From: Mobula hypostoma
Taxonomy: Eukaryota
Direction: 5' to 3'
NCBI RefSeq assembly: GCF_963921235.1
Contig: NC_086097.1
Coordinates: 46,130,001-46,194,000, forward strand
DNA: 64,000 bases
Part shown: piece after piece, positions 12,860-53,392 of the stretch
Layout: each line of letters starts with the position of its first letter
How positions within the stretch are numbered: the stretch's first letter is position 1
Program-made: the position numbers and the translations under genes
Notes under the pieces: generated by a model
The model's input: only the letters and a program-made list of their open reading frames with translations
Told to the model about the DNA's origin: nothing
Database searches by the model: none

Positions 12860-13995
12860 TGGGACGGGTTACACCTGAACCCAAGGGGAGCCAATATCCT
12901 TTTGGGCAGGTTTGCTAGAACTGTTGGGGAAGGTTGAAACTAAATTGGCAGGAGGATGGGAATCAGAGTGATAGGGCTGAGGATGGGGCAGTTGGTATAC
13001 AAGTAGATGCAGTGTGCAGTGAGAGTGTTAGGAAGGGCGGGCAGATGATAGGGGAGAATTGCAGTCAGTGGGATGAGCTACAATGTAATATAAGGACAAA
13101 ATCTAAAAGGGTGATGAGCACAGGACTAAAGTTGTTATATTTGAATGCACACAGTATATGGAATAAGGATTATGGTGTTGTGGGAATCACTGGGTCATGG
13201 CTGAAAGAAGATCATAGTTGGGAACATAACATCAAAAAATACACATTGTATCAAAATGACAGGCAGGTATGCTGAGGTGGTAGAGTTCCACTGTTGGTAA
13301 AAATGAAATCAAATCCTTAGAAAGAGGTGACATAGGATTGAAAGATGTAGAATCCTTGTGGGTAGAGTTAAGAAACTGCAAAAAGGTAAAAGGACCCTGA
13401 TGGGAATTATATACAGGGCTTCAAACAGTAGCGGGGATGTGGGATACAAATTACAATGGGAGATAGAAAGCACATGTCAAATGGGCAATGTTATGATGGT
13501 CGTGGAGGATTTCAATATGCAAGTAGATTGGAAAAATCAAGTTGGGGCTGGATTCCGAGAGAGAGAACTTGGTAGAATGCCTACAAGACATCTTTTTAGA
13601 GCAGTTTGTGGTTAAACCCACAAAGCGAAAGGATATTTTGGATTGGGCATTGTGTAAAAAAACCAGATTTGATTAGGGAGCTTAAGGTAAAGGAGCCCTT
13701 AGGAGACTGTGATCATAATATGATAGACAACACATTGCAATTTGAGAGGGAGAAGCTAAAGTCAGGTGTATGTATCAGTATTACAATGGAGTAAAGGGAA
13801 TTACAGAGGCATGAGAGATGAGCTGGCCAAAATTGATTGGAAGAGAACACTAGAAGGGATGATGGCAGAACAACAATGGCTGGAGTCTCTTGAAGAAGTT
13901 TAGAAGGCAAGGTCCAGATAGTCGCTAAGAAGTGGTAGTATTCTAAAGTGACCCAACTATGAATGACAAGGGAGGTCAAAAACAACATAAAAGCC
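12860..13995 (+). mobile_element. Degraded CR1 LINE (ORF1 end and endonuclease)
   Basis: DGLHLNPRGANIL, LKLLYLNAHSI, IIYRASNS, EDFNMQVDW and PLGDCDHNMI fragments with frameshifts. Confidence 0.85.
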
Positions 13996-14947: not shown

Positions 14948-17900
14948 CTCCGGATCTGCTTACAATACTCCAAGTGAGGCCTCACCAGTGCTTTATAAAG
15001 TCTCAACATTACATCCTTGCTTTTATATTCTAGTCCTCTTGAAATGAATGTTAGCATCACATTTGCCTTCTTTTCCACCAACTCAAGGTGCAAATTAACC
15101 TTTAGGGAACCCTGAACAAGGACTCCCAAGTCCCTTTGCATCTCAGTTTTTTGTATTTTCCCTCCATTTAGAAAATAGTCAACCTTTTCATTTCTTCTAC
15201 CGAAATACATGACCACACAGTTCCCAACACTGTATTCCATCTGCTATTTCTATGCCCATTCTTCTAATCTGTCTAAGTCCTTCTGTAGCTTCTCTATTTC
15301 CTCAAAACCACCTGCCCTCCACCTATCTTCATATCATCTGCAAACTTTGCAACAAAGCTATCAATTCCATCATCCAAATCATTGACATATAACATAAAAA
15401 GAATTGGTCCCAACGCAGTCCTCTGTGGAACACCACTAGTCACCAGCAGCGAACTAGAAAAGGCTCCCTTTATTCCCACTCTTTGTCTCCTGCCAGTCAG
15501 CCACTGCTTTATCCATGCTAGGATCTTTCCTGCAATACTGTGGGCTCATAGTTTGTTAAGCAGCCTCATGCGTGGCACCTTGTTTAAGGCCTTCTGAAAA
15601 TCTAAGCACACAACATCAACCGATTCTCCTTTGTCTATCCTGCTTGTTACTTCTTCAAAGACTTCCAACAGATTTGTCAGGCAAGATTTTACCTTGTGGA
15701 ACCTATGTTGACTTTGGCCTATTTTATAATTTGCCTCCAAGTACCCCAAAACCATATCCTTAACAATTGACCCAACATCTTCCCAATCACTGAGGTCAGA
15801 CTAACTGGCTTTAAGTTTCCTTTCTTTTGCCTCTCTCCCTTCTTGAAGAGTGGAGCTACATCTGCAATTTTCCAGTCTCCCGGAACCATTCCAGAATCTA
15901 GTGATTCCTGAAAGATCATTACTAATGCCTCTACCATGTCTTCAGCCACCTCTTTCAGAACCCTGGGGTGTACACCATCTGGTCCAGGAGACTTGTCTAT
16001 CTTCAGACCTTTAAGTATCCCAAGAACCTTCTCTCTACTAATGGTAACCTTCGCACACTTTATGACCCCTGACACCTGAAACTTTCACCCTACTGCTGGT
16101 GTCTACCACAGTGAAGACTGATGCAAAATGCTTATTCAGTTCATCTGCCATTACCTTGCCCCCTCCACTACTACCACTCCTCCTGCATCATTTTCCAGCA
16201 GTCCAATATCCTCACCCTCCTCTCTTTTCCACTTAATGTATCTGAAGAAACTTTTGGTATGCTCTTTAATATTATTGGCTAAATTACTCTTGTATTCCAT
16301 CTTTACCTTAATGACTTTTTATTTGCTTTAGTTGCTTTTTAAAAGCTTTCCAATCCTCTAACCTCCCAGTAATTTTTGCTCCATAACATGCCCTCTCTGT
16401 GGCTTTTATGTTGCTTTAACTTCTTGTTCACCACAGTTATGCTATCTTGCCTTTAGAATACTACTTCTTTTGGCCTTCTGAATTGCTTCCAGAAATTCCA
16501 GCCATTCCTGCTCTGCCGTCATCCCTGCCGGTGTTCTTTTCCAGTCAGTTCTGGCCAACTCCTCTTTCACGCCTTTGTAATTCCCTTTACTCCACTGTAA
16601 AACTGATACATCTGATGTTAGCTTTTCCTTCTCAGATTTCAGGGTGAATTCAATCATATTAAGATCCCTTTCCCCTAAAGGTTCTTTTACCTTAAGCTCC
16701 CTAATCAATTCTAGTGAACAGCGCCCAATTCAGAATAGCTGATTCTATAGTGGACTCAACCATGAACTGCTGTTAAAGGCCATCTCGTAGGCACTTGAGA
16801 AAGACCCCACCTGGAATCCTGCATCAATCTGATTTTCCCAATCTACCTGTATATTGAAATCCCCCATGACTATTGTAATATTGCTCTTTGGACATGCATT
16901 TTCTATCTCCTGGTAATTTGTAGGCCACATCCTTACTAGTGTTTGGGGGTCTGTATACAATTCCCATCAGGGTCTTCTTACCCTTGCAGTTCCTTACCTC
17001 TATGCACAATGATTCAACACCTATTTCACCTCTTTCTAATGATTTGATTTCATTTTTACCAACAGACCAACGTCACCGCTCTGCCTTCTTGCCTTCTTTC
17101 AATATGTATCCTTGGACATTAAGCTCCCAACTATAATCTTCTTTCAGCCATAATTCAGTGATGCCTACAACATGCCAATTTGCAACTGTGCTACAAGTTC
17201 ATCTCCCTTATTCCGTATACTGTGTGGATTCAAATATAGCACCTTTAATCTTGTACTCACCATCTTCAATTTTGTCTGCCTTTTACATTGCAACTTATCC
17301 TGTTGACTGCAATTTTGCCCTATCATCAGCCTCTCCTTACTACATATTGCCATTGTTTGTAAACCAGCTACCCTTTCTTCAGCAATGTCATCTGGCTTTC
17401 CTCTAATACTTCTTGCATTGAAATATACGCAGCTCAGGATAGTAGACACACCATGCTCAACCTTTCGATTCCTAACTTTGTCTGAGGTCGTTCCAACATC
17501 TCTCTCCACAGCCTCTCCACTAGCTGTTCTGGCACTCTGGTTCCCATGCCCTGGAACTCTAGTTTAAACCCCACTATGCAGCATTAACAAGCCTTCCTGC
17601 TAGGATATTAGTCCCTCTCCTGTTCAGGTGCAAACCATCCCTTCTGTACAGGTCCGGCCTTCTCTGAAGGAGAGCCCAGTGATCCAAAAATCTTTTGTCC
17701 TCCCGCCTGCACCAACCCTTTAGCCACGTATTAAACTGTATAATCTTCCTAGTTCTGGCCTCAATAGTACGTGACATGGGTGGCAATCCTGACATCACAA
17801 TCCTGGTGGTCCTGACCTTTAATTTAGCACTTAACACCCTGAACTTCCTATGCAGAACCCCGTCACTTGTCCTACCCATGTCATTGGACCATGACTTCCA

Positions 17901-39549: not shown

Positions 39550-42500
39550 CATAAGACGAGAATTAGGCCATTTGGCCCATTGAGCCTGCTCTGCCATTCC
39601 ATCATGGCTGATTTATTATCTCTCTCAACCCCATTCCCTTGCTTTCTCCCCATTACCTTCGCCTGACTAATCAATAACCTATCAATTTCCACTTTAAATA
39701 CTTCCACTTTCCACTGGACCTCTACAGTCATCTGTGGCAAAGAATTCCACAGATTCACGAGCCTCTGGCTAAAGAAATTCCTCCTCATTGCTGTTCTAAA
39801 TGGATGTACCTCTATTCTGAGGCTGTGCCCTCTGGTCCTAAACTCGCCCACCATAGGAAATATACTCCCCATGTCCACTCTGTCTTGCCCTTTAAATATT
39901 TGATAGGTTTCAATGAGATCTCCCCCTTATTCTCTTTATCTCCAGCATGTATAGGCCCAGAGCTATCAATCACTCCTCATACATTAACCTTTTCATTTCT
40001 GGAATAATTCTTGTAAATCTCCTATGGATTCTCTCCAATGTCAGCACATCTTTTCTTAGATATGGAGCCCAAAAATGCAAATAGTATCCCAAGTATGGTC
40101 TGACCAATGCCTTATAAAGCCTCAGCATTACATCCTTGTTCTTATATTCCAGTTGTTTTGAGATGAATGCTAAAATTACATTTGCTTTCATTACCATCAC
40201 TTCAACCAGCAAATTAATGTTTAGGGAATTGTGCACAAGGACTCCCAAGTCCCTTTGCAACTTTGATTTTTTAATTTTCTCCCCATTTAGAAAAGTTTAT
40301 GCCTTTATTCCTTCTACTAAAGTGCATGACCATACACTTTACAACACTATATTCCATCTTCCACTTGTTTGCCCATTCTCCCAATCTGAATCCTTCTGCA
40401 GACTCCGTTTCCGTAACACCATCTTTCCCACCACCTATCTTTGTATTTTCCACAAACTTGGCTACAAAGCCATCAATTTTGTCATACAAATCATTGAAAT
40501 ACAATGTGAAAAGCTGTCCCAACACGAACTCTTGCAGAACACTACAAGGTACCGACAGCCAACCAGAAAAAGCACTCTTTAATTCCACTCTTTACTTCCT
40601 GCTAGTCAGCCAACCTTCTATTCATGCTGATATATTTCCTGTAATACCATGGGTTCTTATTTTGTTAAACAGCCTCATATGCCATACCTTGTTAAAGGCC
40701 TTCTAAAGTTCCAAATAAATAACATCTACTGACACCTCTTTGTCTATCCTGCCTTTGTTTCCTCAAAGCATTCCAACAGGTTCGTCAGGCAAGATTGTCA
40801 CTTAAGGAAAACATTCTGATTACAGCCTATTTTATCATGTGCTTCCAAGTACCCTGAAATCCCATCCTTCATAATGGACTCCAACATGTTCCCAATCACA
40901 GAAGTCAGGCTAACTGGCCTATAATTTCTTTTTTTCTGCCTCCCTCCCTTCTTAAAGAGTGGAGTGATATTTACAAACTTCTAATCCATTCCAGAATCTA
41001 GTGATTCTTGACAGATCCTGACTAATGGCTCCACAATCTCTTCAACTATCTCTTTCAGAACCTGGGGTGTAGTCCTTCTGGTCCAGGTAACTTTTCTACC
41101 TTCAGGCCTTTCAGCTTCCAAAGCACCTTCTCTTTAGTACTAATAACTACACTCACTTCTGCTCCCTGACACTTGTGAATTTCTGGCATTCTGTTAGTGT
41201 CTTCCACAGTGAAAACTAACGCGAAATACTTATTAAGTTAATCCATTTCTTTGTACCCCATTACTACCTCTCCAGTCATCCGATACCCACTCTCACTTCT
41301 CTTTTACTGTATATATCCTAAAAAAACCTTCTGTTATCTTTTTAAAAACGCAAACACGAGGAATTCTGCAGATGCTGGAAATTCAAGCAACACTATAATG
41401 TGTGTTGTCTGGTATCTTTTTTATATTATTGGCTAGCTTACTTTCGTATTTCATATTTTCTCTCCTTACGGCTTTTTATTTGCCTTTTGCTGGTTTTTAA
41501 AAGCTTCCCACTAATATTTTGCTTTATTATCTGTCTTTTTTTTCTCTTCTATGCTGTCATAGACTTCCCTTGTTGGCCATGGTTGCCTCATCCTCTCTTT
41601 AGAATTGTACTTCATCTTTGAGATGCATCTATCCCTCACCTTGCGAACTGCTCCCCAAAAATCCAGCCATTGCTGTATCCCTGCTACTGTTCTATTCCAG
41701 TCAACTACGGCCAACTCCCCCCTCATGCCTCTATAATTCCCTCTACTTCATGGTACTACTAATACATCTGACTTTAGCTTTTCCCTCTCAAACTGTGAGG
41801 TGAATGATCACTGTCTCCTCAGGGTTCCTTAAGCCCCCTTATCAAATATAGTTCATTAGACAAAATCCAATCCAGAATCGCCTTTCCCCTAGTGGACTCA
41901 ACCACAAGTTGCTCTAAAAAAGCCATCTTGTAGAAATTCTACATATTCCCTCTCTTGGGATCCAGCATCAACCTGATTTTTCCAATCTAGCTGCATATTG
42001 AAATCTCCATACTATTGTTACATTGCCCTTTTTTATATACATTTTCTATCTCTTCTTGTAATTCGTATCTCACATCCGGGTCAAAAGGACGGGTTACACT
42101 TGAATCCTAGGGGGACCAATATCCTGGCAGGGAGATTAGCGGGGGCTACTGAGGTGACTTTAAACTAGAATGGTTGGGGGGTGGGAATCAAATTAAAGAG
42201 GCTAGGCGTGAGGAGGTTAGTTCACAACAGAGGGATGGGAACCAGTGCAGAGAGACAGAGGGGTGTAAAGTGAGCGTAGAAGCAAAAAGTACAAAGGAGA
42301 AAAGTAAAAGTGGCAGGCCGACAAATCCAGGGCAAGCATTAAAAAGGGCCACTTTTCAACATAATTGTACAAGGGCTAAGAGAGTTGTAAAAGAGCGCCT
42401 GAAGGCTTTATGTGTCAATGCCAGGAGCATTCGTAATAAGGTGGATGAATTGAAAGTGCAGATTGTTATTAATGATTATGATATAGTTGGGATCACAGAG

Positions 42501-45500
42501 ACATGGCTCCAGGGTGACCAGGGATGGGAGCTCAACGTTCAGGGATATTCAATATTCAGGAGGGATAGACATGAAGGAAGGGGAGGTGGGGTGGCGTTGC
42601 TGGTTAAAGAAGAGATTAACGCAATAGAAAGGAAGGACATAAGCCGGGAAGATGTGGAATCGATATGGGTAGAGCTGCGTAACACTAAGGGGCAGAAGAC
42701 GCTGGTGGGAGTTGTGTACAGGCCACCTAACAGTAGTAGTGAGGTCGGAGATGGTATTAAACAGGAAATTGGAAATGTGTGCAATAAAGGAACAGCAGTT
42801 ATAATGGGTGACTTCAATCTACATGTAGATTGGGTGAACCAAATTGGTAAAGGTGCTGAGGAAGAGGATTTCTTGGAATGTATGCGGGATGGTTTTTTGA
42901 ACCAACATGTTGAGGAACCAACTAGAGAGCAGGCTATTCTGGACTGGGTTTTGAGCAATGAGGAAGGGTTAATTAGCGATCTTGTCGTGAGAGGCCCCTT
43001 GGGTAAGAGTGACCATAATATGGTGGAATTCTTCATTAATATGGAGAGTGACATAGTTAATTCAGAAACAAAGGTTCTGAACTTAAAGAAGGGTAACTTT
43101 GAAGGTATGAGACGTGAATTAGCTAAGATAGACTGGCAAATGACACTTAAAGGATTGACGGTGGATATGCAATGACAAGCATTTAAAGGTTGCATGGATG
43201 AACTACAACAATTGTTCATCCCAGTTTGGCAAAAGAATAAATCAAGGAAGGTGGTGCACCCGTGGCTGACAAGAGAAATTAGGGATAGTATCAATTCCAA
43301 AGAAGTAGCATACAAATTAGCCAGAGAAAGTGGTTCACCTGAGAACTGGGAGAAATTCAGAGTTCAGCAGAGGAGGACAAAGGGCTTAATTAGGAAGGGG
43401 AAAAAAGATTATGAGAGAAAACCGGCAGAGAACATAAAAACGGACTGTAAAAGCTTTTATAGATATGTAAAAAGGAAAAGACTGGTAAAGACAAATGTAG
43501 GTCTCCTGCAGACAGAAACAGGTGAATTGATTATGGGGAGCAAGGACATGGCAGACCAATTGAATAATTACTTTGGTTCTGTCTTCACTAAGGAGGACAT
43601 AAATAATCTTCCAGAAATAGTAAGGGACAGAGGGTCCAGTGGGATGGAGGAACTGAGTGAAATACATGTTAGTAGGGAAGTGGTGTTAGGTAAATTGAAG
43701 GGATTGAAGGCAGATAAATCCCCAGGGCCAGATGGTCTGCATCCTAGAGTGCTTAAGGAAGTAGCCTAAGAAATAGTGGATGCATTAGTGATAATTTTTC
43801 AAAACTCGTTAGATTCTGGACTAGTTCCTGAGGATTGGAGGGTGGCTAATGTAACCCCACTTTTTAAAAAAGGAGGGAGAGAGAAACCGGGGAATTATAG
43901 ACTGGTTAGCCTAACGTCGGTGGTGGGGAAACTGCTGGAGTCAGTTATCAAGGATGTGATAACAGCACATTTGGAAAGCGGTGAAATGATCGGACAAAGT
44001 CAGCATGGATTTGTGAAAGGAAAATCACGTCTGACGAATCTCATAGAATTTTTTGAGGATGTAACTAGTAGAGTGGATAGGGGAGAACCAGTGGATGTGG
44101 TATATTTGGATTTTCAAAAGGCTTTTGACAAGGTCCCACACAGGAGATTAGTGTGCAAACTTAAAGCACACGGTATTGGGGGTAAGGTGTGGGTGGAGAA
44201 TTGGTTAGCAGACAGGAAGCAAAGAGTGGGAATAAACGGGACCTTTTCAGAATGGCAGGCGGTGACTAGTGGGGTACCGCAAGGCTCAGTGCTGGGACCC
44301 CAGTTGTTTACAATATATATTAATGACTTGGATGAGGGAATTAAATGCAGCATCTCCAAGTTTGTGGATGACACGAAGCTGGGTGGCAGTGTTAGCAGTG
44401 AGGAGGATGCTAAGAGGATGCAGGGTGACTTGGATAGGTTGGGTGAGTGGGCAAACTCATGGCAAATGCAATTTAATGTGGATAAATGTGAAGTTATCCA
44501 CTTTGGTGGCAAAAATAGGAAAACAGATTATTATCTGAATGGTGGCCGATTAGGAAAAGGGGAGGTGCAACGAGACCTGGGTGTCATTATACACCAGTCA
44601 TTGAAAGTGGGCATGCAGGTACAGCAGGCGGTGAAAAAGGCGAATGGTATGCTGGCATTTATAGCGAGAGGATTCGAGTACAGGAACAGGGAGGTACTAC
44701 TGCAGTTGTACAAGGCCTTGGTGAGACCACACCGGGAGTATTGTGTGCAGTTTTGGTCCCCTAATCTGAGGAAAGACATCTTTGCCATAGAGGGAGTACA
44801 AAGAAGGTTCACCAGATTGATTCCTGGGATGGCAGGACTTTCATATGAAGAAAGACTGGATGAACTGGGCTTGTACTCGTTGGAATTTAGAAGATTGAGG
44901 GGGGATCTGATTGAAACGTATAAGATCCTAAAGGGATTGGACAGGCTAGATGCAGGAAGATTGTTCCCGATGTTGGGGAAGTCCAGAACGAGGGGTCACA
45001 GTTTGAGGATAGAGGGGAAGCCTTTTAGGACCGAGATTAGGAAAAACTTCTTCACACAGAGAGTGGTGAATCTGTGGAATTCTCTGCCACAGCAAACTGT
45101 TGAGGCCAGTTCATTGGCTATGTTTAAGAGGGAGTTAGATATGGCCCTTGTGGCTACAGGGGTCAGGGGGTATGGAGGGAAGGCTGGGGCGGGGTTCTGA
45201 GTTGGATGATCAGCCATGATCATAATAAATGGCGGTGCAGGCTCGAAGGGCCGAATGGCCTACTCCTGCACCTATTTTCTATGTTTCTATTCTGGCTACT
45301 TTTGGAGGCCTGTTTATAACTCCAATCAGGTCTTTTTACTCTTGCAGTTTCTTAATTCTACCCACAAGGATTCTACATCTTCCGATCCTATGTCACCTTT
45401 TTCTAAGGATTTGATTTTATTATTTTACCAACAGAGCAGCACCCCCCCCTTTGCCTACCTGTCTGTCCTTTTGATACAATGTGTACCTTTAGATGTTAAG

Positions 45501-45815
45501 CTCCCAACTACGATCATCTTTCAGCCATGACTCAGTGATGCCCACAATGTCATTCGTGCCAATCTCTAACTGCTCTACAAGATCTTCTATCTTTTCCATA
45601 CACCACGTGCTTTCAGATATAACACATTCAGTCATGTATTCATCACCCTTTTCAATTCTGCCCCCATTTTACACTTCAATTTATCCCACTGACTGCAATT
45701 TTGCCCTATTGTCTGCTTGCCCTTCCTCAGACACACGATGCACTGCATCTACTTGTATACCAACTGCTCCATCCTCAGCCCTATCACTATGGTTCCTACC
45801 CCCGTGCCAAATTAG
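39550..45815 (-). mobile_element. Older degraded CR1 LINE split by a younger + strand CR1 (42079-45290)
   Basis: RT fragments at 39522-40706. EN sequence breaks at cacatcc (42077) and resumes at tggctacttttggagg (~45293). Confidence 0.85.
42079..45290 (+). mobile_element. Young CR1 LINE: end of ORF1 and near-intact ORF2 (APE endonuclease + RT) with 3' tail
   Basis: ORFs 42174..43175, 43194..43769 and 43776..45200 share one frame, broken only by two stop codons. Motifs [33 protein letters not shown] and KFVDD are present; tail ttttctatgtttctat. Confidence 0.95.
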
Positions 45816-50414: not shown

Positions 50415-53392
50415 CACAGATTTCTGGATCATTGGGACCTCTTCTGGGGCAGGCGTGACCTGTACAAAAAGGACGGGTTACACTTGAATCCAAGGGTGAC
50501 TATTATCCTGGCAGAGAGATTTGCTAAGGCTATTGGGGAGAGTTTAAACTAGAATTACTGGGGGGTGGGAACCAAACTGAAGAGATGGAGGAAGGGTGTT
50601 TGGCTCACAAATAGAGAAAGCTTGTAGGCAGTGTGAGAGGGAGGATAGGCAGGTGATAGAGAAGGGATGCGCTCAGACTGATGGTTTGAGATGTGTCTAT
50701 TTTAATGCAAGAAACATCATGAACAAAGCGGATGAACTTAGAGCATGGATCAGTATTTGGAGCTGTGATGTTGTGGCTATTACAGAGACTTGGATGTCTC
50801 AGGGGCAGGAATGGCTGCTGAATGTGCCAGGCTTTAGGTGTTTCAGAAAGGACAGGGAGAGAGGCAAAAGAGGTGGGGGCATGGCACTGCTGATCAGAGA
50901 TAGTGTCATGGCTGCAGAAAAGGAGGAAGTCACGGAGGGATTGTCTTCTGAGTCTCTGTGGGTGGAAGTTAGAAACAGGAAGGGGTCAATAACTCTACTG
51001 GATGTTTTTATAGACCACCCAATAGTAACAGGGTCATCGAGGAGCAGATAGGAAGACAGATTCTGGAAAGGTGTAATAACAACAGGGTTGTCGTGGAGGG
51101 AGATTTTAATTTCCCCAATATCGATTGGCATCTTCCTAGAGCAAGGGGCTTAGATGGGGTGGAGTTTGTTAGGTATGTTCAGGAAAGTTTCCTGACACAA
51201 TATGTAGATAAGCCTACGAGAGGAGAGGCTGTACTTGATCTGGTATTGGGAAATGAACCTGGTCAGGTGTCAGGTCTCTCAGTGGGAGAGCATTTTGGAG
51301 ATAACGATCATAATTCTATCTCCTTTACCACAGCATTGGAGAGGGATAGGAACAGACAAGTTAAGAAAGTGTTTAATTGGAGTAAGGGGGAATATGAAGC
51401 TATCAGACAGGAACTTAGCATAAATTGGGAACAGATGTTCTCAGGGAAATGTACGGCAGAAATGTGGCATATGTTTAGGGATATTTGCGTGACGTTCTGC
51501 ATAGGTACGTTCCAATGAGACAGGGAAAGGATGGTAGGGTACAGGAACTGTGGCGTACTAAGGCTGTTGAAAATCTAGTCAAGAAGAAAAGAAAAGCTTA
51601 CAAAATGTTCAAAAATCTAGGTAAGGATAGAGATCTAGAAAATTATAAGGCTAGCAGGAGGGAGCTTAAGAATGAAATTAGGAAAGTCAGAAGGGGCCAT
51701 GAGAAGGCCTTGGTGAGCAGGATTAAGGAAAACCCAAGGCATTCTACGAGTATGCAAAGAGCAGGAGGATAAGATGTGAGAGAATAGGACCAATCAGGTG
51801 TGAAAGTGGAAAAATGTGTATGGAACCGGAGGAGATAGCAGATATGCTTAATGAATACTTTGCCTCGGTATTCACTACGGCAAAGGACCTTGGCGACTGC
51901 AGGGATGACTTACAGTGGACTGAAAAGCTTGTGCACAGACATTAAGAAAGAGGATGTGCTGGAGCTTTTGGAAAGCATCAAGTTGGACAAGTCACCGGGA
52001 CCAGATGACATATACACCAGGCTACTGTGGGAGGTGAGGGAGGAGATTGCTGATCCTCTGGCAATGATCTTTGCATCATCAATGGGGATGGGAGAGGTTC
52101 CGGAGGATTGGAGGGTTGCAGATGTTGTTCCTTTATTCAAGAAAGGGAGTAGAGACAGCCCAGGAAATTATAGTCCAGCGAGTCATACTTCAGCAGTTGG
52201 TAAGTTGATGGAGAAGATCCCGAGAGACAGGATTTATGAACATTTGGAGAGGCGTAATATGATTAGGAATAGTCAGCAAGGCTTTGTCAAAAGTAGGTCG
52301 TGCCTTACAAGCCTGATTGTAAGGGAACCTTGCTTTGTGGATCCAGAATTGGCTTGCCCACAGAAGGCAAAGAGTGGTTGTAGACAGGTCATACTCTGCA
52401 TGGAGGTCAGTGACCAGTGGTGTGCCTCAGGGATCTGTTCTGGGACCCCTTCTCTTCGTGATTTTTATAAATGACCTTTGAGGAAGTGGAGGGATGGGTT
52501 AGTAAATTTGCTGATGACACAAAGGTTGGAGGTGTTGTGGATAGTGTGGAGGGCTGTCAGAGGATACAACGGGACATCGATAGGATGCAAAACTGGGCTG
52601 AGAAGTGGCAGATGAAGTTCAACCCAGATAAGTGTCAGGTAGTTCATTTTGGTAGGTAAAATATGACGGCAGAATATAATATTAATGGTAAGACTCTTGG
52701 CAATGTGGAGGATCAGAGGGATCTTGGGGTCCGAGTCCATAGGACACTCAAAGCTGCTGCGCAGGTTGACTGTGTGGTTAAGAAGGCGTACGGTGTATTG
52801 GCCTTCATCAATCATGGAATTGAATTTAGGAGCCGAGAGGTAATGTTGCAGCTATATAGGACCCTGGTCAGACTCCAACTAGAGTACTGTGCTCAGTTCT
52901 GGTTGCCTCACTACAGGAAGGATGTGGAAGCCATAGAAAGAGTGCAGAGGAGAGTTCCAAGGATGTTGCCTGGATTGGGGAGCATCCCCTTTGAGAACAG
53001 GTTGAGTGAACTTGGCCTTTTCTCCTTGCAGCGGCAGAGGATGAGAGGTGACCAGATAGAGGTGTATAAGATGATGAGAGGCATTGACTGTCTGTATAGT
53101 CAGGCTTTTTCCCAGGGCTGAAATGGCTAACACGAGAGGGCACAGTTTTAAGGTGCTTGGAAGTAGGTACAGAGGAGACGTCAGGGATAAGTTGTTTTTC
53201 TTTTTAAGCAGAGTGTGGTGAGTGCATGGAATGGGCTGCCAGCAAAGGTGGTGGAAGTGGATTTGATAGAGTCTTTTAAGAGACTCCTGGATAGGTACAT
53301 GGAGCTTAGAAAAAGAGAGAGCTATGGGTAACCCTAGGTAACTTCTAAAGTAAGTACACGTTCGGCACAGCATCATGCGCCAAAGGGCTAGC
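50415..53392 (+). mobile_element. CR1 LINE (ORF1 end through 3' UTR), frameshifted
   Basis: LRCVYFNARNI, ITETW, GDFNFPNIDW, KSPGPDD, KFADDTKVGG, LEYCAQFW. Confidence 0.9.

Follow-up and report, generated by a model that had tools for sequence, protein, structure and literature searches.

Programmed -1 frameshifting on a conserved slippery heptamer as the probable route to ORF2 in vertebrate CR1 elements

A CR1 LINE represented in the genome of Mobula hypostoma probably produces, in its active parental form, an ORF1-ORF2 fusion protein by programmed -1 ribosomal frameshifting. This reading comes from a junction at which ORF1 ends on the slippery heptamer U_UUA_AAC and ORF2 continues in the -1 frame without an AUG ahead of its endonuclease, and from the preservation of the heptamer, in phase, across diverged CR1 subfamilies and jawed vertebrates. 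Such a mechanism would set CR1 apart from other LINEs, for which ribosomes are described as stopping and restarting; the accessible text of PMC5009743 and PMC3708506 treats LINE ORF2 translation as unclear and takes reinitiation as its working model. CR1-group elements dominate many vertebrates and make up 22-34% of shark and ray genomes according to the main text of a 2026 survey (PMC13343379), in which the words "frameshift", "slippery", "overlap" and "translation" do not occur. No report of frameshifting for CR1 was found among the open-literature listings returned; the founding CR1 papers of 1997-2003 may have noted the overlap. We analyzed a stretch of 64,000 nucleotides (contig NC_086097.1, positions 46,130,001 to 46,194,000), hereafter the window, in which positions are counted from the first nucleotide.

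The focal CR1 copy and its ORF1/ORF2 junction

The feature under study is the ORF1/ORF2 junction of a CR1 copy on the + strand, surrounded by an older antisense CR1 in a nested block (39630-45737). At least ten CR1 fragments belonging to several subfamilies are scattered across the window, several of them nested in opposite orientation. The focal copy is dead and cannot itself express ORF2: it is truncated at the 5' end near 42083, which leaves only about 28 codons of ORF1, and its ORF2 carries in-frame stops at 43173 and 43767, so the frameshift claim concerns the parent element. The ORF1 remnant (42083..42168, + strand) covers the end of an SGNH esterase, from the DxxH loop to the terminal Leu-Asn-stop, and was assigned by identity to P0030, a Mobula protein with a full ORF1 and a PF13472 match, whose last 26 residues are identical to those of the remnant. 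The 30-residue remnant alone gives no Pfam match, and a sister copy at 17577-17900 matches PF13472 with an E value of 4e-6, which is below the curated cut-off. ORF2, taken across its two stops, extends over 42153..45200 (+) and encodes an APE endonuclease domain (42414..43025; PF03372, PF14529) followed by a reverse transcriptase domain (43875..44522; PF00078, E 1.5e-32). The 3' UTR (45201..45290, +) contains a predicted stem-loop (45234-45272) and a short terminal repeat, and lacks poly(A). With an esterase ORF1 (through P0030), an APE endonuclease and reverse transcriptase in ORF2, and this 3' end, the focal element has the same domains and terminus as the canonical vertebrate CR1 described in the main text of PMC13343379.

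The anatomy of the junction agrees with the original prediction in every coordinate that had been stated. The heptamer U_UUA_AAC, which has the X_XXY_YYZ form, occupies 42159..42165 in the phase of ORF1 and is followed directly by the ORF1 stop TAG (42166..42168), both at the positions that had been proposed. ORF2 had been placed in the -1 frame, opening after a TGA; this stop (42150..42152) indeed closes the -1 frame two codons upstream of the heptamer, beyond which the frame is open for 338 codons. The region between the ORF1 stop and the endonuclease (42169..42413) is an AUG-free linker in the -1 frame, open in 0.6% of 2000 shuffles. The first in-frame AUG, at 42804 within the endonuclease domain, is codon 216 and lies beyond the NARS motif at 42417, as had been claimed, with endonuclease motif I beginning at codon 86 from the heptamer. 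The AUG at 42170, said to be in the third frame and to close quickly, is in the +1 frame and reaches a stop after eight codons. Elsewhere in the focal ORF2 no canonical heptamer was found in phase (0 of 1007 codon positions), and among the 11 occurrences of U_UUA_AAC in the 128,000 strand-bases of the window, three lie at CR1 ORF1 ends, a placement that exceeds chance.

Conservation of the heptamer in CR1 junctions and ORF1 proteins

Four further copies in the window extend to the end of ORF1, located at 50543, 17568, 12934 and 31.7 kb. The comparison at the DNA level included five junctions: the focal one, those at 50543, 17568 and 12934, and L001, a locus from a metagenome scan; the 31.7 kb copy, which has lost its junction, and the 45.8 kb copy, whose sequence begins beyond it, were left out of the count. 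Heptamer and stop lie at 50543..50552 (+) in a second, diverged subfamily, at 17559..17568 (-) in a third subfamily with the ORF1 esterase upstream, and at 12934..12943 (+) in a fourth copy, in which the heptamer has one change, the stop is TAA, and the linker contains AUGs. L001 was the sole vertebrate-type CR1 junction among the 13 loci examined out of the 14 found in the scan; its ORF1 is 34% identical, the C-terminal end resembles a sturgeon protein, and an in-phase heptamer, stop and G-run follow one another as in the focal copy. A further locus, L007 (1290-1500), is a distant LINE with an esterase-like ORF1, a single stop and then a same-frame ORF2 with its own AUG; its junction has no heptamer and its expression layout differs from that of the CR1 junctions. 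The remaining examined loci were rejected as bacterial-type hydrolases or as having no ORF2 behind, and no CR1 junction was found in viral contigs and plasmids.

The conservation and phase of the heptamer relative to its flanks had been set beforehand as a check on the prediction, and the outcome was in its favor. The in-phase U_UUA_AAC and the stop are intact in four of the five junctions, and the fifth retains six of the seven bases. Between junctions, 6-7 of the 7 heptamer positions matched, as against 7-17 of 24 in the preceding 24 nt and 9-20 of 24 at ORF1 third positions. The Leu-Asn codons are TTA AAC in four of the five, with no synonymous variants. On this comparison, the heptamer is kept at the nucleotide level, beyond the protein level alone.

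The surroundings of the heptamer restrict the ways in which ORF2 could be reached. All five junctions have a -1-frame stop 2-5 codons upstream of the heptamer and no AUG in between, so ORF2 cannot begin inside ORF1. Read-through of the stop was rejected, as every one of them meets another stop in the ORF1 frame within 12-41 codons. The linker, whose length varies from about 32 to 86 codons (roughly 30-90 residues), is open from the heptamer to the endonuclease in three junctions (shuffles open in 0.6%, 0.4% and 37%), while the other two copies switch frame inside it. An in-frame AUG upstream of the endonuclease that is in actual use had been named as an observation that would count against the prediction, and the presence of such AUGs, the first half of this condition, divides the lineages. 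The focal lineage and L001 have no AUG ahead of endonuclease motif I, the first AUG being at codon 216 as opposed to 86 in the former and at codon 44 as opposed to 36 (NARS) in the latter, and here ORF2 is open in -1 from the heptamer without a start of its own. In the 12.9 kb subfamily, AUGs are present in the linker, the first at codon 38 with the endonuclease at codon 69, and similar linker AUGs occur in the 31.7 kb copy and in protein P0003; codon 15 is an in-frame AUG in the 50.5 kb copy.

The - strand copy at 17900-16900 contains two successive endonuclease starts: counted from the heptamer, motif I appears near codon 48 and again near codon 111, and the linker ahead of this second start resembles that of the 12.9 kb subfamily. 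This copy is probably a recombinant with a newly gained 5' part.

At the protein level, the set of ORF1 homologues comprised 219 sequences, of which 146 had a recognizable DxxH loop and 121 a tail of 20-34 residues after it. A C-terminal Leu-Asn was found in 103 of the 219, and in 84 of the 121 with such a tail. The hosts include rays and sharks (Hypanus, Hemitrygon, Leucoraja, Narcine, Mobula, Mustelus, Scyliorhinus), bony fish, namely a sturgeon and a mormyrid (Acipenser, Paramormyrops), frogs (Hyla, Leptobrachium, Ranitomeya), turtles (Pelodiscus, Macrochelys, Lepidochelys, Gopherus), lizards (Varanus, Zootoca, and Anolis with its 71 near-identical ORF1 proteins) and a bird, the swallow Hirundo. 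The first U of the heptamer requires a preceding codon ending in U, which excludes Glu, Gln, Lys, Met and Trp. These residues precede the terminal Leu-Asn in only 1 of 103 proteins as against 29 of 127 internal Leu-Asn pairs, and they occupy the next two positions in 46 and 41 of the 103, respectively. Among representatives at 50% identity the counts are 1 of 51 before terminal and 14 of 79 before internal Leu-Asn, with a binomial P of 0.003 relative to positions -4 to -10, relatedness being left uncorrected. Evidence on the bases themselves comes from three database proteins translated out of frame, P0003 (ray), P0110 (turtle) and P0247 (lizard), which have Phe-Lys-Leu at the junction, where the bases for Leu-Asn-stop have been read in the -1 frame; under the genetic code, Phe-Lys-Leu in one frame and Leu-Asn-stop in the other fix six of the seven heptamer bases.

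Long ORF1-ORF2 fusion proteins were also encountered (five matches); those examined, two bird CR1 proteins and P0234, were rejected as gene models that skip the junction, which do not count as evidence of natural in-frame fusion. Seven other records (P0013, P0066, P0067, P0073, P0109, P0118 and P0282) are gene models joining the CR1 ORF1 esterase to host genes, which is exonisation or an annotation artefact, and two CR1-like proteins recorded under a bacterium and a plant (P0009 and P0074) probably represent contamination.

More distant relatives do not end in Leu-Asn, and their ends appear compatible with other heptamers, a possible case of heptamer switching. Among such representatives, 39 of 52 had a tripeptide compatible with some X_XXY_YYZ at tail positions 21-30, the expectation derived from these proteins being 10.6 and the maximum in 100,000 simulations 24; the interval was chosen after the data had been seen and the proteins are related. 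The other 13 had none. In the set of 55 proteins, Gln-Gly-Asn occurred 11 times and x-Lys-Asn 10 times, alongside Gly-Phe and Phe-Phe/Leu forms. Seven of the 10 x-Lys-Asn motifs are internal, with more residues beyond them. P0219, a loach protein, and two relatives have a similar loop and lack the signature. The Gln-Gly-Asn and x-Lys-Asn motifs are compatible with G_GGA_AAC and A_AAA_AAC, respectively, as judged from the protein sequences of these putative CR1 relatives. Both heptamers, together with U_UUA_AAC, are listed among the most shifty ones in the accessible text of PMC5009743.

Proposed mechanism and alternative explanations

From the anatomy, phase and conservation of the junction, we infer a slip that would yield a fusion protein at a low level. 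Ribosomes translating the esterase ORF1 would arrive at U_UUA_AAC with tRNA-Leu in the P site, tRNA-Asn in the A site and the stop codon next. The majority would terminate there, and a minority would undergo tandem slippage by one base back and continue through the variable linker into the enzymatic domains. The outcome, as with Gag-Pol, would be a fusion of esterase, linker, endonuclease and reverse transcriptase made in small amounts. The CR1 junction resembles viral U_UUA_AAC sites in the heptamer and its correct phase, in the structural ORF upstream, and in a polymerase ORF without AUG in the -1 frame. It differs in that CR1 is a LINE, for which the slip is proposed and no stable downstream pseudoknot or hairpin was found. 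Frameshifting has already been asserted for a LINE: the available text of PMC5911963 states that a -1 frameshift is required for ORF2 of Dictyostelium TRE5-A and TRE3-A. These are APE-type LINEs with a -1 frameshift for ORF2, as proposed here, but they belong to another host kingdom and are other elements, and that text names no heptamer.

The principal alternative is termination-reinitiation as in L1 and SART1, in which ribosomes stop at the ORF1 end and restart at a nearby AUG or non-AUG codon to make a free ORF2 protein; we consider it unlikely as the sole route, and it could operate alongside frameshifting in subfamilies with linker AUGs. The mechanism is described for human L1 and silkworm SART1 (PMC2881922, PMC3708506, PMC5009743, in their accessible text), whose bicistronic RNA, like that of CR1 as a LINE, couples ORF2 translation to ORF1 translation (PMC2881922, PMC3708506), and possible restart points exist in the AUGs of the 12.9 kb subfamily and, for the focal copy, in the UUG at 42174. 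In L1 and SART1, unconventional initiation or stop-start reinitiation gives a separate ORF2 protein, whereas in CR1 the overlap of the two ORFs falls on a slippery site, and an AUG is missing from several lineages; for L1, the available text of PMC5009743 refers to an unknown form of initiation and does not mention "CR1". A SART1-type arrangement, with an ORF2 AUG overlapping or adjoining the ORF1 stop, was not seen: the frame of AUG 42170 is not that of ORF2, none of the other four junctions has this AUG, and the five have no near-cognate start in common. Reinitiation also leaves unexplained a phase-specific heptamer kept for more than 400 million years. In the 12.9 kb copy, too, the 37 codons that precede its first AUG are open.

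Two further explanations address the conserved bases themselves. They could serve as a different signal in RNA or DNA, for instance a protein-binding site or a splice acceptor using the AG of the stop, with ORF2 made from a processed RNA; we consider this very unlikely. The extension of the conserved block to the stop codon and G-tract fits such a signal, but the AG lacks a pyrimidine tract ahead of it, the stop in the 12.9 kb copy is TAA, and none of the joints and loose ends listed for DNA contigs lies at 42168/42169. That the Leu-Asn end is kept for the sake of the esterase, as part of its last helix or as a C-terminal signal, with the heptamer a by-product, is hardly credible. All 22 sequences of alignment A1 have Leu-Asn, mostly at a fixed 26 residues from the DxxH loop, and a terminal Asn is common to the Gly-Asn and Lys-Asn ends, as such a constraint would have it. 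Against it stand the fixed codons, the avoidance of residues without a U-ending codon before Leu-Asn, and the internal position of the x-Lys-Asn motif in most cases, with residues beyond it.

If CR1 frameshifts, the real CR1 enzyme would be the ORF1-ORF2 fusion, and CR1 ORF2 annotations starting at the first AUG would be truncated. Constructs for CR1 retrotransposition assays would then need the native junction, and host anti-frameshifting factors would become candidate restrictors of CR1.

Sequences downstream of the heptamer

The G-rich tract that had been predicted a few nucleotides downstream is present (42172..42185, + strand, 7 nt past the heptamer) and loosely conserved, but the proposed check of the 3' fold revealed no conserved hairpin or G-quadruplex. 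Local pseudoknot-free folds of 60, 90 and 130 nt gave MFE z-scores from -0.7 to +1.4 in all 15 cases, so that no significant or shared local structure was found a few nucleotides downstream. Only two of the five junctions have a predicted two-tier G-quadruplex, at 60-90 nt, and the focal G4Hunter peak of 1.48 is surpassed elsewhere in ORF2. At long range, the focal G-tract (42172-42186) pairs best with the C-rich arm of the 3' UTR stem (45257-45280), at -21.1 kcal/mol, which is no better than control 30-mers (-14 to -29); in the 50 kb copy the best long-range site is elsewhere, and in co-folding the 3' UTR hairpin wins. An adjacent stop codon can aid slippage, and this stop and the G-tract are candidates for a stimulator.

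Contigs aligned on 42072-42300 numbered 5410 in run X1, 5934 in X5, 2 in X9 and 29 in X15. In X1 and X5, no substitution reached 3% from 42156 to 42194, a weak indication given that variable sites are sparse (9 in about 116 nt), and loose ends of diverged subfamilies still reach into the first bases of the heptamer. Of six variable linker sites, only one is at the third position of a -1-frame codon; a synonymous bias is thus absent, and the linker gives no hint of being constrained as protein. The G-rich motif that follows the heptamer (42178-42189) is found a second time in the focal linker, 54 nt downstream (42232-42243); the repeated motif is perhaps a relic of an older junction, and such junction swaps could explain the variable linker length.
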